64,000 bases of DNA. Source: Eledone cirrhosa. Taxonomy: Eukaryota. The DNA lies in NCBI GenBank assembly GCA_964016885.1, contig OZ024740.1:192200001-192264000 (forward strand), given 5' to 3'. Numbering within the stretch: the stretch's first letter is position 1; the number at the start of each line of letters is the position of its first letter. Made by a program: the position numbers and the translations under genes. Shown one piece after another: positions 6,076 to 53,520 of this stretch. The notes below the pieces were generated by a model. The model ran no database searches. It was not told where the DNA came from and saw nothing but the letters and a program-made list of their open reading frames with translations.

Positions 6076-6083
6076 AACAGAAG

Positions 6084-6354
6084 AAAATTAATGCATGACA
6101 ATGCAACAACAATTGACCACATGCATTCCTTAAATGAGGTGGAGAGTGAAGAAATAGGTAGCTTCTTATATATTGGTATTTGAAAGAACACAGGACGCGG
6201 TCCGGCCTCCTGGATAGGCAACGAGATGGAAATATATGCAGAACACTCAATTCCGGCATATACTAATGTATAAGAAGCTACCCAGTTCTTCACTCTCCAC
6301 ATCATTTAAGGAATGCATCTGGTCAATTGTTGTTGCATTGTCATGCATTAATTT
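6084..6354. repeat. Fold-back inverted repeat with ~95-bp arms and ~85-bp spacer, adjacent to (TA)n
   Basis: aaaattaatgcatgacaatgcaacaacaattgacca... is the reverse complement of ...tggtcaattgttgttgcattgtcatgcattaatttt. Confidence 0.85.
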
Positions 6355-6375
6355 TATTCTATATATATATATAAA

Positions 6376-6961: not shown

Positions 6962-6993
6962 TTACTTATGTATCAAAGTTATGTTTAAATCCT

Positions 6994-7049
6994 TTAATCG
7001 CTGACAATTGTTTCTTCCCAACTTAAGCTTGGATTCCTCGGAGCATTAA
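6994..7049 (-). ncRNA. Minimal type I hammerhead ribozyme, CCGAGGA core (family B)
   Basis: Reverse-complement copy of 7222-7277. Confidence 0.65.
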
Positions 7050-7221
7050 CAATGTTTATACTTATAATTAACCTCCTATTGAACTGAAGAATCATACAGA
7101 TACATATTTATTGATGTTGAGGACAACCTGTAAACATGAACCTGTTGTCCACAACATCAATATATATGTATCTGTATGATTCTTCAGTTGAATAGGAGGT
7201 TAATTATATGTACAAACATTG

Positions 7222-7277
7222 TTAATGCTCCGAGGAATCCAAGCTTAAGTTTGGAAGAAACAATTGTCAGCGATTAA
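7222..7277 (+). ncRNA. Minimal type I hammerhead ribozyme, CCGAGGA core (family B)
   Basis: Stem I ttaatgct/agc(g)attaa, core CCGAGGA, stem II tccaa/ttgga, then GAAAC-aatt-GTC with palindromic stem III (acaattgt). Confidence 0.7.
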
Positions 7278-7309
7278 ATGATTTAAACATAACTTTGATA
7301 CATAAGTAA

Positions 7310-7346
<37 letters not shown>

Positions 7347-7354
7347 GAAAAAGT

Positions 7355-7573
7355 ATGACCCCGACGGCAAAGCTCAAGCCGTTTCGGCGGCTATTTCTGA
7401 AATGTTCGACGGCTATTTCTGAAATTTTCGACGGCTATTCCAGAAATAGCCGTCGAAACGGCTTGAGCTCTGCCGTCGGGTTGATATTTTTTCCTATTTT
7501 CAAATCTACTACCCTAAGTATTGAGTACTCTGGTGCGTTATGGTCCACCTGGTTCCTTACCACAATTCCTTTG

Positions 7574-7575
<2 letters not shown>
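7355..7575. mobile_element. Fold-back pLTR insert (family C) with 3' half of an HHR and asymmetric tail
   Basis: The short inverted arm from 7355 pairs with 7441-7485, and the right arm extends about 90 bp to (TA)n. It contains gtcGAAACggcttgagctctgccGTCggg. Homologous to 14505-14643(-), 16122-16180(-) and 21648-21976. Confidence 0.75.
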
Positions 7576-7649
<74 letters not shown>

Positions 7650-7860
7650 TTGGAGGAGAAGGCAATACGTTCAAAATCAAATTTACCACCTTACACGGGG
7701 TTTCATCGAAGCAATATCAATATAAGAATTCTATACATATATGTGTGTACGTATGCATGTATATTATTATAAATAATATTTTCATAGAATCTTCAGAGAA
7801 GAAATATTATTGTTTTTGATGATGTTGTTGGAAGGTGTTCTAATCTATCTACCATTATAT

Positions 7861-8850: not shown

Positions 8851-11330
8851 AAATTATCATCGCAAGTCCAAGCGCCGCCAAGAAGAGAGGAGAACATATT
8901 CTATCAAATGAAACTATCCTCGGAAACATTTCAGATTATCTGGATACAAATCAAGGAGGCCTGGGAGAGAAAAACCTCTGGGTTATTCTTGTCAGGAAGT
9001 AAGGATACTATTTAAATTGAAGATGCTGTTGGTCAAGTCGACATGAACACCCTCGCTAGGGAATCATATTTGCTTTCTTTTGATATAAATGATTAATGGT
9101 ATGACAAGAATGATGAACGAATACCTGTTCCTACAGTTCAGTGAAATCATGCATTAAAACTCATTAGATATAGCCGCAGTTGATTCTAACATGGGAAATG
9201 GTAGATGCTCAAGATGAGATCCATATAATCTAGAGTAGGACCAAATTACTCATGTGGATGTGAGCCATATTTGTCAAAAATCGTCTCGTGAAACTCTTCT
9301 TTTTTCTGTATAATATGTGAGGGATATAGTCAAGTGCAAGTGGTGCTACGAGGAGAAGTCAGATTTAGATACGAAATTATTGCAAAACAGTTTGGCTGTT
9401 GACTGTTGAACCGTCTCTCAATGTATCGGCTTTCGTAAACAAGTATTGCATTTTGTTCTTACAGAGTAACTATCCCACCCCCATCTATCAGTGTGGCTTT
9501 AGAGTGGGTTGCCAACCTAGTCATTAAAAACCAAAACCATTTTACCAGATAACCATTTGTTTCATTTAAATTAGTTTAATCCATTGTTAGTGTATATGGT
9601 CTTACGATATCGAATAGGAGAATCTGTACGGTTCACTGATTAGTTACTTCGTCAAAACATATAAGCATATGTCTTCAGCACATATGTTACGAGTGTAAGC
9701 AGGGAGAAAGAAATGTTAGACCATGAATTAGGTCATTTTATTGAAAGAAATGCCGACATGTATATTGTGTAAGAATGCCTATAAATATATATATATATAT
9801 ATGTATATATATTTGTTAGAATATGTCTTTTAGAAAGGAAATGTTTTAACAAGAACAACTTAAATCGAAATGTAATAATTTTAGCAACATATATCATCAA
9901 CGATTACATCATTCATTTTTCCTATCATTTCATGATAAAAAAAAAACATTAGAAACGTATGTAAAACACTACATAAGAAAATTAGACGAACAATTGTAGA
10001 AAAATAAACATTTTAACCGAATGTAAGCTATAACTTTAATTGGTGGTTACTAACGGACTAATAGAATAGAGTTATATCTAGTAGAATATAATTATATCTA
10101 AGCTGTGAGGAGACGTTTTAATGTACACACTGTGTGGTGCAAAATGGGTGTAATCTAAATTGTAATGCCGGTAATAGTATTAAAGTAGGTCATTAAACGC
10201 AGCTTAACAAACATACTATAGAAATGATCTAGTTATTGGTGTATTCAAAATATAATATGCACTTAATAATAGAGCAGAAGCAAATTGATCGATGTACAGA
10301 TTATGGAAAACATTACCAAGATGAATTTTAAAATGGAAATATGTATAAATGATTTCCTATATAGAGCCTGACTAATTTCGACACTTACCGGTGCCAGCAT
10401 ATCAATTTCAAATTTTTGAGATACGAACCCACATTTGAGAACAAAGTCCTATCAATTCCATATTCACTTCAACGTTGAAGAACTTTGATAGCAACTATGT
10501 ACTAATAGCCTTTTGGTAGAGAGCCAGTGTAACGTGCAGAATGTACGAATTAACCAAATCATGATTACATTACTGGCTGTAGTCTAGTTTTATTTTCATC
10601 GTTAGGTGCTGCTGTATATTGTCTGTGATTACTCGTTGTTAATTCGTCTTTATTATTTAAGTAAAATAAGGAATAATTATGAAAGCCTAATGGTGTACGG
10701 AATTATCATTTCACGCTATTTTGACATATATTCTCTTCAGTTACGTTGTCCATGGTTTTGCTCTGGAAAAATAAGTAAAAAATAAGTGCCTCACAGAATC
10801 TCATTCCTCGCTCTATTGAATATGTGACATCCTGTCTAATGAAGTAATTTATATTACTAATTTATCTATATTACTAATTTATCAAGTATTGTAAAATATA
10901 TTTTAAAAATGTCTCTATTGTGTTTACTTAACACAATATTTGACGTTATTAGATATGTTTTTTTGTTTGTTTTGCTGTATATTAACTGTAAACTGGCCTA
11001 TTAATTGGCCCTCTAAGGTGGCCCAGTCAATTACACCGGCTTACGTAAATACAGTTAATATAAAGCGAACCTAAATTACGTAAGCATATTTCAACTGAGT
11101 TCACTATGAGAAATAAGTACGACGAACATTATTATTACATACAGCTGCATCATTTTTACCGTCTTTTCATTAAAACATAATGATTCGAAAATGTATTTGT
11201 GCAAATACCTGAGCCCCGACAAATATACGAACGTATAGAGAACACAGCATTTCAAAGCATTTATTAACTATTCTAGGAAACATTGCATAGCAATAAAAGT
11301 ACCGTGCCTCAAAATGTGTGTCATACAATA

Positions 11331-14312: not shown

Positions 14313-15398
<1,086 letters not shown>

Positions 15399-15922: not shown

Positions 15923-15974
<52 letters not shown>

Positions 15975-16044
15975 CTTACATTTCTTCTTTTTTCAGTTTC
16001 CCTACTTTTAATCGATCCTTTAGATTTATGGCATTTCTTTTGAC

Positions 16045-16084
16045 CGGTCTAAATTCTACTTATAGTAATTGATATAAACACCCG

Positions 16085-16125
<41 letters not shown>

Positions 16126-16318
16126 AAACTAGTCAGGACCCCGACGACTGAGATCTGGCCGTTTCGACAGCTAGATCCGAACACAAATACCCCCCTACAC
16201 ACACACACCCCATACCCACTCACACATATATATATATATACATACATATATATATATATATGTATGTATGTATATATATATATGTTTATATCAATTACTA
16301 TAAGTAGAATTTAGACCG
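16045..16318. repeat. 36-bp inverted repeat around microsatellites containing a family C stub (16122-16180)
   Basis: cggtctaaattctacttatagtaattgatataaaca / tgtttatatcaattactataagtagaatttagaccg. Confidence 0.85.
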
Positions 16319-16884
16319 CTACGCCTCCGATCATCGCATTTCAACCTGATTCAACGACTATCATTATACCGAGCACGGCGTTCAGAGGGCGCACACATCT
16401 AGTGAAAATGAAATTCATTAATAATAAGGTTCAAACATTTGAATGCGTAATAGTTCCAGCATTTTAAATCGTTAAATTCAGTAGTCGACAAAGCATATTA
16501 TTTTAAAATATAAATACCTTGACACAAAGAAGCAGACAGGAAAGAATTAAAGAAGCTAGAAATAAAACAAGACAGGAAACGGTGAAAAGATTTGCCATAA
16601 ATCTAAAGGATTGAATAAAAGTAAGGAAACTGAAAAAAGAAGAAATGCAGGTAAAAGAATCGAATTAAAAGAAAGAACGATAAAAAATAAAGGAGAAACA
16701 TGCTCTATAAAATTACATGAAACTGACATGTATCTACAAGCGTTACTTTGTAATATATAAAAAGAAAATATGATATGTAGATCAGATAATTTTGGTTGCA
16801 AGCAAATAACAAAAGTAAAGAATAATAAGGAAGGGAAAAGTGAAATATACAAGATAAATAGCAATATAATCATGTGAGTACACG

Positions 16885-17303: not shown

Positions 17304-19139
17304 TGATATCTGATATGTTGATCAGAAACAAAAATTAAAACGAAGAAAATATGGAGAGAGGTAGAAGAGTGAATATACATAAAAGAATATCTTATAGCGA
17401 CAAAAACATAAAGGAAATATATATATGTGAATAGCAATATAGAAACACAAATACCCAGTACAAAAGAATATGTGTCATATATTCTGTATATGACACTAGA
17501 TTATAATTTGTGTGTATTTAATTCCAAATCGGAAAAACATAGATGGCGTTAAACAAAATATATCTACAATTCACACACAAAAAAAAAATTTTTGAAATGA
17601 TAACTTACACTTTGATAGAATATTACCAATTAACAAAGAGGACCTCAGAAAATTAAAAAGACATCCAAAATACATAAAATAACCTCCGACATTTTCGAGG
17701 AATTTCAATATTATAAAAGAGAAATATGTTCAAACTGTAGAGAAAATAACATTCCGTATCCGGTAATTATTTTCATTACATAATGTTGGTGCCCCAGCAT
17801 GCCCTCAGCCTGTCGGCTGGAACAGGTAACAGAGTATTTTGGAGGAAGTGCATTACTTATATTTAAAAGGACACATCTATTCTGATATACGCATGGGAAA
17901 GGCACCGTTGTATAAACACTAGATTATGTTTTCAAAATTCAAAATCTAATATTAATATCTAAATGTCTGTCCTGTTTTTTAATTTCAGTCTCGTGATATG
18001 TTACGATAGAACACTAGTGTAACACTTTCCTATTAATCATTAATCGAATACCGATTATACATACTCTTCTAGGTATGGTCTATCATCACAAACTTTCAAA
18101 TTCTGTTGTCAGTTTTCATTTTTCTAAGCCATAACCTTGTATGTTTCTAGATCGGATATATTCAGCAGTTTCAAAACGTTCATTAACAGATTTTTTTTCA
18201 ATTTATGTAATGAATCCATTTCCGAATATCTTTGTACAAACAAGCACAGTCAAGTTTACACAAAGGTTTAAAATGCATAATTGTGTAGGTTTTTGTTGCA
18301 TGCAACACTTTATATACTTGTGCATTTGCTCCGTATGTCTGCATTGTCCCTAATTTCCCGAGGAAGTCGTAAAGACACCGTAATAACATACGGCGTTTCT
18401 AAACTAAATATGGGTACATGTGTCCGTACCTGAAATGATGTTTGTACGTATTTGTGTAGTATATTTATTTCAGAGAACGCTTAAATAGTCACATTAATCG
18501 TGAATATATTTGAATCACACTCGCTCTTTGTTTCTTTAATACAATAGAGTATTGTTTGAGTTGAATGAATTGGAAAATAGCCGGTATTAGATACCACTTC
18601 GTCTCGTTTTATTTCTAAGTTTCAATAGAATTTGAAATGGAACTTGACAAAATAACGAAAATAATTTGTCTGTTGCCAGTTGTAGTATGATAGGGTTGTT
18701 TTGATTACACACAAATTATACAGTTCTAAATAAGTAAGCAAAGTATTAAGAGAACTTTATTTCGTGTTCATGTGATATAGAAGGGATACAATAGTTTCAA
18801 CAAAAATTAGGACCATGACTGCGCTATTAGTTTCTAGAAAGCCTAGAATTTGCATTACCAAAACATTGCTTTTTTGCTTTAGAATATTAGTCACAGCAGA
18901 AGGCTATATGTATTTTTCATAGAATACAAAGAATATGTGTAGTTGGCTGGAATACATCTTATTTTATTGAGACCAAGCGTGATGTGAACTCAAAATATCA
19001 CACTAAATTATTACAAATTCAGCGAACTTGCAAAGATAATCCTGGTAACTATGATATTAGTTTACTTGCATTTTCCAGATAAAGATACAAAGCTTGAGTG
19101 AGTGAGGAAGTGAGAAAGAGATATAAATGAAGAATCGAC

Positions 19140-20430: not shown

Positions 20431-20858
20431 ATTGGTAAACGGAATAGAAAATGCTGACAAATTGTTCACAGTTGAAAGATGGTTTAATTAGGAATACAAG
20501 AGTATTAGTAATTGTATGGGTTAGTATTCAGTTGTGGTTTTAAGTTTTTAAGTTTTTACCGGTTGCGCATTTCTAAATGCTTTACAAAAATAATTTTGAG
20601 ATAGAGTGTCCGTGCTGTTTGCTCAGATCAGAGCAAACAGCACGGACACTCTATCTCAAAATTATTTTTGTAAAGCATTTAGAAATGCGCAACCGGTAAA
20701 AACTTAAAAACTTAAAACCACAACTGAATACTAACCCATACAATTACTAATACTCTTGTATTCCTAATTAAACCATTTTTCAACTGTGAACAATTTGTCA
20801 GCATTTTCTATTCCGTTTACCAATATATAATAACTTGTGTGTTACACCTCTATTCTTT

Positions 20859-21585: not shown

Positions 21586-21647
21586 TAAAGTGTTCCTTCA
21601 TCAGTGATCTTCCAACCATCACAGGTATTTCTTCGATATATATATAT

Positions 21648-21974
21648 AGGAATGAGTAGGACCCCGACGGCTGAGCTCAAGCCTTATCGACGGCTAATTC
21701 TGGACGGGGTACAATAGTTTCAACAAAAATTAGGACCATGACTGCGCTATTAGTTTCTAGAAAGCCTAGAATTTGCATTACCAAGACATTGCTTTTTTGC
21801 TTTAGAATATTAGCAGAAGGCCATATGTATTTAATAGAGTCCAGAATTAGCCGTCGAAACGGATTGAGCTCAGCCGTCGGGGTCCTACTCGTTCCTATTA
21901 CCCACTCTACTACCCTAAGTATTGAGTACTTCGGTATGTTATGGTCCACCTGGTTTCTTACCACATTTCCTTCG

Positions 21975-21976
<2 letters not shown>
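21648..21976. mobile_element. Fold-back pLTR insert (family C) with captured spacer and tail
   Basis: Arms 21648-21705 and 21839-21897, tail to 21976. Spacer 21706-21838 is a copy of 18783-18923. Confidence 0.85.
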
Positions 21977-22006
<30 letters not shown>

Positions 22007-27753: not shown

Positions 27754-27841
27754 TATTTAGTGTCACTCTTTTGTTTTGCCCTACACCATCTTGTTTTTGT
27801 GTAGAACAGAACAAAGTAGATACACAAAATATAAGCCAATT

Positions 27842-27906
<65 letters not shown>

Positions 27907-27996
27907 GTGTGAATTGGCTTATATTTTGTGTATCTACTTTGTTGTTCTACACGAAAACAAGATGGTGTAGGGCAAAATAAAAGAGTGACACTAAAT
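27754..27996. repeat. ~90-bp inverted repeat centred on a (TA)n tract
   Basis: tatttagtgtcactctttt...ataagccaattcacac / gtgtgaattggcttat...aaaagagtgacactaaata. Confidence 0.92.
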
Positions 27997-28218
27997 AGAA
28001 ACCTAGTTGTGGAGGAAGTCACAGAATATGTGAGGAAAGAACTTTGACAATATATAAACCACCATCCAGTTATCGAATTAACCAATCAACCAGAAGTGTA
28101 TAATAAATTGAAGTGAACACCAACATGTGCGTGTATAACAATATTTGTTTCAACACATGTTTTCAGATAAGAAATCTTGCAAAGCCAATTCAAAAACGAA
28201 GTATATATATATATATAT

Positions 28219-52682: not shown

Positions 52683-53173
52683 CACGATAAATTAACGGAG
52701 GCATAGGCAGTCGTTAATTCCCTGTAAATAATGTGCTCAAAGGGGAAGAGATCCTGAGCCCTTTAGAATATAATATGTTGAGAAGGTAACACACCAGAGA
52801 GGTATATATAGTGCGTTATCAATAATACAGGGAAAAAACCACCAGTGTATGGAATCTATAACCTATGAAAGGCAGACTATAGACACGATAATTAAAAATA
52901 TAAATTAAACCGTAAATAAATACCTCTATAACTATATTACACACGTACAAATCCAGAGATATGTTTCGCCAGAGAAATTGTTGAAAGAAATGTTAGTTTC
53001 GGTTCATCAGCGTGTGTAAGGCTATTTACGCTTTAATTTATATTTTTAATTATCGTGTCTATAGTCAGCCTTTCATAGGTTATAGATTCCATACACTGGT
53101 GGTTTTTTCCCTGTATTATTGATAACGCACTATATATCTCTCTCTGGTGTGTTACCTTCTCAACATATTATAT

Positions 53174-53174
<1 letters not shown>
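52679..53174. mobile_element. Fold-back pLTR insert (family D) with an HHR at the apex and ~90-bp tail
   Basis: Arms ~52767-52918 and 53023-53174, extension 52679-52766, (TA)n on both sides. Confidence 0.88.
52937..53019 (-). ncRNA. Type I hammerhead ribozyme with canonical core
   Basis: Minus strand reads ttacacacg-CTGATGA-acc gaaa...tttc tct ggc-GAA-ACATATC tctg GATTTGT-A-cgtgtgtaa. Stem I is 9 bp, stem III pairs 6 of 7, and the triplet is GUA. Predicted cut between 52946 and 52945. Confidence 0.85.
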
Positions 53175-53232
<58 letters not shown>

Positions 53233-53234
<2 letters not shown>

Positions 53235-53324
53235 GTAGATGTTAAACTTTCCATTTTCCGGATTCCTGAAGAATACGTAATTGTATGACATGATCCACGT
53301 TCTCTCATCATCGTCAGCCGTATC

Positions 53325-53380
<56 letters not shown>

Positions 53381-53391
53381 GATCCGATACG

Positions 53392-53428
<37 letters not shown>

Positions 53429-53520
53429 GATACGGGTGGCGTTGATGAGAGAGCGTGGATCATGTTATACAATTACGTATTCTTCAGGAATCCGGAAAAT
53501 GGAAAGTTTAACATCTACGT
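53233..53520. repeat. ~94-bp inverted repeat centred on (TA)n, with an extra 16-bp abortive copy at 53379-53394
   Basis: acgtagatgttaaactttccattttccggattcctgaagaatacg... / ...cgtattcttcaggaatccggaaaatggaaagtttaacatctacgt. Confidence 0.92.

Follow-up and report, generated by a model that had tools for sequence, protein, structure and literature searches.

Structure of the insert

The window, a stretch of 64,000 nt of the Eledone cirrhosa genome (assembly GCA_964016885.1, contig OZ024740.1, positions 192,200,001 to 192,264,000), carries in a (TA)n tract a fold-back insert of a repeat designated family C, in which two arms enclose a spacer (Table 1). The arms are inverted relative to each other with 93% identity. 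Their inner ends lie at +57 (short arm) and +58 (long arm), both modal positions, which indicates that nothing was trimmed. The long arm contains the 3' half of a hammerhead-like motif. A target-site duplication was not discernible in the (TA)n flanks as read from the sequence. Because the sense strand of the reverse transcriptase (RT)/GIY-YIG coding region points outward to the (TA)n tract, the insert is, judged by its sequence, composed of two 3' ends of a Penelope-like element (PLE), placed head-to-head and joined at their truncated 5' sides in (TA)n.

Table 1. Features of the insert, its donor and two comparison copies (positions in the window)
Feature	Position	Strand	Description or basis
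Left part of (TA)n target tract	21637..21648	.	sequence
Short arm	21649..21705	-	pLTR end of putative Hydra-clade PLE, sense leftward, ends at inner start site
Captured spacer	21706..21838	+	copy of 18783-18923; alignment, genome search
Long arm, pLTR part	21839..21895	+	inverted partner of short arm
81-nt tail, one arm only	21896..21976	+	outer start site
Right part of (TA)n target tract	21977..22005	.	sequence
Donor	18783..18923	+	unique non-coding DNA without arms or TA flanks
Family C fold-back (comparison)	7347..7574	.	36-nt self-templated apex, no host spacer
Longer family C copy with one arm and a tail (comparison)	14506..15330	-	

In the preliminary description, the family C copies at 7355 and 14505 were said to lack the spacer, which is borne out by the anatomy of both; the 36-nt apex of the former is made up of repeats of its own arm end. 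Fold-backs of other families lie in or beside microsatellites at window positions 6080-6359, 6962-7309, 20432-20823 (a 99% perfect palindrome) and 52764-53177. The segment 28000-32000 has a GC content of 49-59% and a strong C skew, unlike the remaining window. About 70 kb downstream of the insert, a C2H2 zinc-finger ORF is present on the + strand (L225:8390-9079), and Helitron/PIF1 fragments lie further downstream on the - strand (L227:513-2521).

The spacer is a copy of nearby unique DNA

Alignment and BLAST within the window (E 1.7e-54) confirmed the match reported in the preliminary description: the spacer is a same-strand copy of the donor, with 4 substitutions over 133 aligned columns and deletions of 6 and 2 nt, both on the spacer side. 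The distance is 2,783 nt from donor end to spacer start, or 2,923 nt from start to start. Each spacer junction shares 1-2 nt of microhomology with the donor flanks. Two details were noticed after the fact, namely that the 6-nt deletion is flanked by two AG dinucleotides and that the last 30 nt of the spacer hold 4 of the 6 differences from the donor.

A search of the 2,996-Mb genome, which leaves out very common words, returned two matches to the spacer, the spacer itself and the donor, as had been anticipated for the 133-mer. With a 641-nt query around the donor, the same search gave the donor, the spacer and an unrelated repeat of ~65 nt located 150 nt downstream of the donor. Consistent with the earlier statement that the donor has no element arms, its flanks showed a repeat depth of 0 and were free of arms. 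Repeat finding over the whole window gave output dominated by microsatellites. In read-derived contigs, the spacer version was recovered in contig X1, which covers 21755-21846 over 92 nt with 0 differences and extends 8 nt into the right arm; the read runs behind X1 may come from the sample used for the assembly itself, so that its independence is uncertain. The donor version is present in separate read-derived contigs, and the whole insert is spanned by none. The occurrence of both versions argues against an assembly artefact.

Family C matches the Hydra clade of Penelope-like elements

Long family C copies run inward into a frameshifted ORF that encodes an RT followed by a GIY-YIG nuclease. 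At the loci L074, L088 and L090, YRDDG is followed by VIY..YIG, again with frameshifts. DKT replaces DKG in L109 and L090. A CxCX5C linker reads CNCPDGSIC in L075 and L090, and its last Cys is lost in L074 and L088. The nuclease is without CCHH and has one Cys between VIY and YIG. The RWK motif, also a mark of the Hydra clade, was absent from the three loci scanned for it, and an RWR stretch can be read by eye in L109. The structural features of PLEs, that is a pLTR, an inverted 5'-truncated copy and a one-ended tail, are all present, and pLTR and tail run on into the beginning of the ORF in L109. The family C insert at L109:1386-2547 contains in its apex an inverted short arm, pLTR, tail and ~700 nt of ORF start, with the pLTR just 5' of the ORF. 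Neighbors in a protein atlas scored 0.96-0.97, and 11 of 30 matches belonged to clusters in which 18% of the members carry GIY-YIG, a minority label. Searches with the family C ORF gave no match in Pfam and none below E 0.5 in the PDB.

Judged by its coding motifs, family C is an EN+ Penelope-like element, in agreement with the assignment of the inverted ends to a PLE in the preliminary description. Since DKT, the CxCX5C linker and the lack of CCHH match the published description of the Hydra clade, we place it in that clade on the strength of this motif match; its insertion in (TA)n is likewise as in Hydra. The Neptune clade was the first guess and was set aside, as a CX2-5CxxC linker and CCHH were not found.

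A further mark of the Hydra clade is a canonical hammerhead ribozyme. A hammerhead-like motif in type-I arrangement was found in 23 family C arms. Its core is non-canonical (YUGAGAA) and its stem II is long. The YUGAGAA core was seen in L011, L027, L030, L047, L049 and others. In 16 arms of another family, family D, the canonical CUGAUGA/GAAAC hammerhead core is present. Rfam returned no hammerhead match for the family C motif, its matches being microsatellite and hairpin noise, and the minimum free energy fold of the motif differs from a hammerhead (z -0.32).

Ends and apices of family C fold-backs

A search for family C arms gave 1,350 candidates, of which 40 were scored, and an exact short-arm pattern had 2,441 matches in the genome. 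Fold-backs of this kind number in the thousands in the genome. Among 132 mapped family C fold-backs, most of which came from search patterns favoring short arms, 97 have short arms starting at the same base as that of the window insert and 119 have long arms ending at -80/-81. The inner and outer start sites are 81 nt apart, and both end in TAT. In contiguous DNA, where there is no short-arm bias, 32 of 46 family C arms end at +50 to +63 and 1 of 46 extends beyond +80. Within an insert, the position of one inner end shows no correlation with that of the other (rho 0.01, n = 131). This inner-end cluster may mark the 5' end of the RNA. For short and long arms alike, it falls within stem II of the hammerhead-like motif; in family D, the arms seem to end immediately 5' of CUGAUGA.

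The apices of family C are overlaps, blunt joins or short fillers. In 13 of 26 short fillers (5-40 nt), the insert's own arm ends are repeated over at least 8 nt, and the mean match of filler to own arm is 8.1, compared with 4.4 after shuffling. Subfamily pairing of the arms within an insert gave 78 matched pairs and 0 GGGT/CAAT mixtures. Because the arms of an insert nearly always share their subfamily, both are likely to stem from one template source, a result equally compatible with fold-back synthesis of a single strand and with two priming events on the same RNA. A nested inverted duplication at L086:825-4935 takes in several kb of the microsatellite-rich DNA that flanks family C arms.

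Frequency of host DNA at the apex

The family C fold-backs surveyed, 149 in all, comprise 132 in short loci, 12 near the window and 5 on C3; a low-copy spacer of at least 25 nt was found in two of them, the window insert and L109. The 959-nt spacer of L109 is element ORF and not host DNA, which leaves the window insert as the 1 of 149 with host DNA at its apex. The origin of spacers, which the preliminary description suggested tabulating against distance for all fold-backs, was surveyed in 1.264 Mb of contiguous DNA, namely 864 kb around the window and 400 kb of C3. There, 115 repeat-arm fold-backs of all families (81 and 34, respectively) were collected with a detector that needs TA runs on both sides and ~20 matching arm bases and so misses old or disrupted copies. 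Two of the 115 have a unique local donor, and both lie near the window; no local-donor capture was present among the 34 on C3. When the window insert, which had been selected, is left out, the frequency is 1 of 114 (95% interval 0.02-4.8%).

Three other spacers had nearby matches at 67-78% identity, and one had nearby matches of 20-30 nt (E 7e-4). All four were set aside as matches within low-copy element families or as chance. For ~25 low-copy spacers, a local search found no donor within 30 kb; most of these are probably unsampled internal element sequence. Two further structures were observed on C3. At L263:6013-6399 and 9426-9812, a direct duplication of 387 nt of host flank (99%) lies in a cluster of PLE-like arms and resembles a very long target-site duplication. 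At L294-L296 (C3:200,319,554-200,334,170), a TTAA-bounded element, which we take to be piggyBac-like, is accompanied by an internally deleted copy 11-13 kb away.

A second capture and related local copies

The second two-armed capture is a family D insert at C1:192,102,630-192,103,083 (L213:2630-3083), 119 kb from the window insert, with a 78-nt tail and a 282-nt apex. In the apex, an inverted copy taken from 2.6 kb to the right comes first, and a direct copy taken from 3.8 kb to the right adjoins it almost directly. Genome search with this apex gave three matches, itself and the two donors, so that each piece is unique, and one read-derived contig bridges the join between the pieces. As in the window insert, the arms are untrimmed at modal stop points. 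At non-CpG sites, divergence in the window insert is 3.0% between spacer and donor and 5.3% between the arms; in the family D capture it is 11-12% between pieces and donors and 12.2% between the arms. By these values, which form a loose match given arms of 49-57 nt, the two captures would differ in age, and each spacer would be roughly as old as its own arms. The capture event recurs but is rare.

Inverted copies of unique (TA)n flanks across the tract were observed at window positions 15972-16654, 27754-27997 and 53234-53519, and another ~9 kb to the right of the window end. At L184, about 7500-7750, 382 kb to the left of the window, a 251-nt inverted copy of TA flank (95%) from 3.6 kb away is joined to a single repeat arm and takes the position of the second. 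The distances over which TA flanks were copied in inverted orientation range from 0.1 to 3.6 kb, several being 0.1-0.6 kb. The flank copies in and beside the window resemble the fold-back of an L1 flank shown in Fig. S9C of PMC11702581.

Origin of the spacer

The spacer is probably a templated insertion that was added while the element integrated; its most likely source is chromosomal DNA close to the open break. The donor is unique, nearby and left intact, and the copy is bounded by element ends, as expected of a templated insertion. Counting against such an insertion at integration are the number of events, two with one of them selected and none among the 34 fold-backs of C3, the looseness of the age match, the microhomology of only 1-2 nt, the order of the family D pieces and the nearly constant sharing of one subfamily by paired arms. 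The agreement of spacer and arm divergences in both captures fits capture at integration, and ages and untrimmed arms are compatible with capture and insertion in the same event. In the preliminary description, a polymerase was proposed to switch template during integration, before or while forming the second arm. Capture during integration agrees with the ages, and the event recurs in a second family. As to the second arm, two cDNAs that were primed separately and then joined at the apex account for the anatomy no less well than a single strand that folds back.

The following sequence of events is proposed. By analogy to in vitro work on another PLE, the GIY-YIG nuclease would cut both (TA)n strands. 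Each 3' end would then prime cDNA at one of two fixed sites; the sites are observed, and the priming is what we infer from them. Both cDNAs would stop near +50 to +63, where the observed inner ends cluster, possibly for the reason that the RNA 5' end is reached. The ends would be joined, mostly by the overlaps or short self-templated fillers seen at the apices. In rare cases, a free end would copy 125-140 nt from a few kb away before being joined. The product of this last step was observed twice and suggests the proposed timing and template; the copying polymerase could be the element RT or host polymerase theta. A DNA template is favored, since these targets often carry DNA snap-back copies and the same outcome is known from L1. 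The order of the family D pieces, inverted then direct with both donors to the right, misfits copying of resected single-stranded DNA with one piece per end; to produce it, strand invasion, an RNA template or two switches in succession would be required.

An RNA template would be used if the element RT, on reaching the end of the element RNA, had jumped to a nascent transcript of the host that runs through the locus, the spacer then being intronic or intergenic cDNA. We consider this unlikely, and equally so its specific form, in which a Hydra-clade RT primed on both (TA)n strands runs off its RNA at a fixed point, jumps to a nascent host transcript ~3 kb from the cut and places host cDNA between its inverted ends. 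Inner ends do cluster as at a template end, and L1 ORF2p has been shown to jump between templates, according to the part of PMC10830420 that treats it. The family D pieces, taken as one per cDNA end, imply a template of the same (+) strand with sites 1.3 kb apart, and twin priming on one RNA would give this geometry; however, strand invasion of duplex DNA yields the same. The window spacer also fits a + strand template, but the strand cannot be read from one direct piece. The downstream zinc-finger ORF on the + strand would count in favor if its transcript spanned the donor sites. A scan of 120 of 365 unique-sequence ORFs revealed no host exon at or near the two donors, and a protein atlas look-up of the longest ORF around the donors was uninformative. 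In addition, the nearby TA-flank copies run in both directions and are most simply explained as DNA snap-back.

Repair after integration is an improbable source of the spacer. Here a plain palindrome would have formed first, and the tip of its hairpin or cruciform would have broken later and been patched with local DNA by host repair. Palindromes are break-prone and polymerase-theta templated insertions are a general repair scar, both of which were counted in favor of such a course. The spacer/donor divergence of the window insert is also below its arm/arm divergence, and below twice the distance of the copy to its subfamily (8/194 sites). The difference is, however, within counting noise, spacer and arm ages agree in the older family D event, and the arms of both captures stop untrimmed at the modal points. 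There is hardly any chance that the spacer is a dispersed repeat or part of a family C subfamily, the case that the preliminary description had itself named against its reading, or an artefact of assembly. Although very common words are omitted from the genome search and no contig spans the whole insert, the spacer occurs at two loci genome-wide and in 1 of 149 family C fold-backs, differs from the donor at 6 places, and is found, like the donor, in read-derived contigs.

If templated insertion at integration accounts for both captures, the traceable donors show that the inner ends were free 3' ends, open to extension and able to reach over 2.6-3.8 kb. As fold-backs number in the thousands, even a rate of 1% would yield tens to hundreds of captures genome-wide, enough to test a DNA against an RNA template and one-strand against two-strand models from the strand and distance of the donors. 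The main value of the captures is that they allow the closing of PLE insertions to be tested across the whole genome. The preliminary description had proposed a route for duplicating host sequence; such a route is real but minor, as it concerns ~1-2% of fold-backs and short non-coding pieces of 125-140 nt. Should the nascent-RNA explanation be true, the thousands of apices would be a fossil record of the nucleic acid beside the open integration complex.

Comparison with known systems

Inserts made by polymerase theta or break-induced replication mediated by microhomology (MMBIR) are typically <50 nt and come from the immediate flank. The short self-templated fillers and the 1-2-nt microhomology at the junctions are alike, and pieces of 130 nt with a donor 3 kb distant would lie toward the upper limit of such inserts.

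The kind of event is already known from LINE-1, and host DNA between PLE ends from rotifers; traceable PLE donors in the kb range were not found in print. In the open-access literature, no paper was found that traces cis donors at PLE head-to-head apices. In their accessible portions, neither an octopus repeat annotation from 2026 (PMC13282606) nor a retrozyme preprint (10.64898/2026.07.22.740005) deals with local donors at PLE apices.

The Hydra clade, as characterized in the relevant sections of Craig et al. (2021, PMC8557442), has a C-terminal GIY-YIG nuclease, DKT, a CxCX5C linker, no CCHH and (TA)n targets. Family C shares the nuclease and linker motifs, the (TA)n target, the inverted 5'-truncated copy and the one-ended tail. 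Its tail of 81 nt contrasts with the 30-40 nt given there, and its YUGAGAA core, long stem II and lack of an Rfam match are unlike the Hydra description. Host DNA at the inverted junction is present here but does not appear in those sections, where the formation and closing of inverted structures by PLEs is called an open question. For Poseidon of Anolis, cutting and extension of both strands with two start sites were reported in vitro (Frangieh et al., 2024, PMC11167929, in the results available from it). Common to both systems are AT-rich targets and a pair of internal RT start sites by which the tail is defined. Poseidon belongs to a different clade and primes without homology, whereas both start sites end in TAT here; the in vitro work, in the same results, covers cutting and extension, with joining and capture outside its scope.

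In Penelope elements of Adineta vaga, host sequence lies between pLTRs, for which template jumps were proposed (Arkhipova et al., 2013, PMC3846280, in the passages on these elements). Unrelated host DNA between pLTRs and palindromic head-to-head junctions are shared features. In the same passages, the rotifer captures are spacers of 0.9-1.5 kb or whole genes, lie mainly between direct pLTRs and were moved in trans, with no neighboring donor traced; the window insert has a donor in cis, and its captured piece lies at a head-to-head apex.

The insertions mediated by L1 in the study of Mendez-Dorantes et al. (2024, PMC11702581, in the excerpts bearing on junctions) include 3 in which genomic pieces were templated into the insertion, reported along with 99 insertions of L1 and 235 of pseudogenes (~1%). 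Over the three, the pieces came from near the site or from other breakpoints; in one case, all four came from within ~1 kb of the site. As in the inserts described here, short genomic pieces from near the site, sometimes several, lie in the junction, and inverted flank duplications occur too. LINE-1 is another class of element, studied there in cultured human cells, and its all-local case is confined to ~1 kb. In contrast, the donors described here lie at 2.6-3.8 kb, and the copies are germline-fixed and placed between two inverted element ends.
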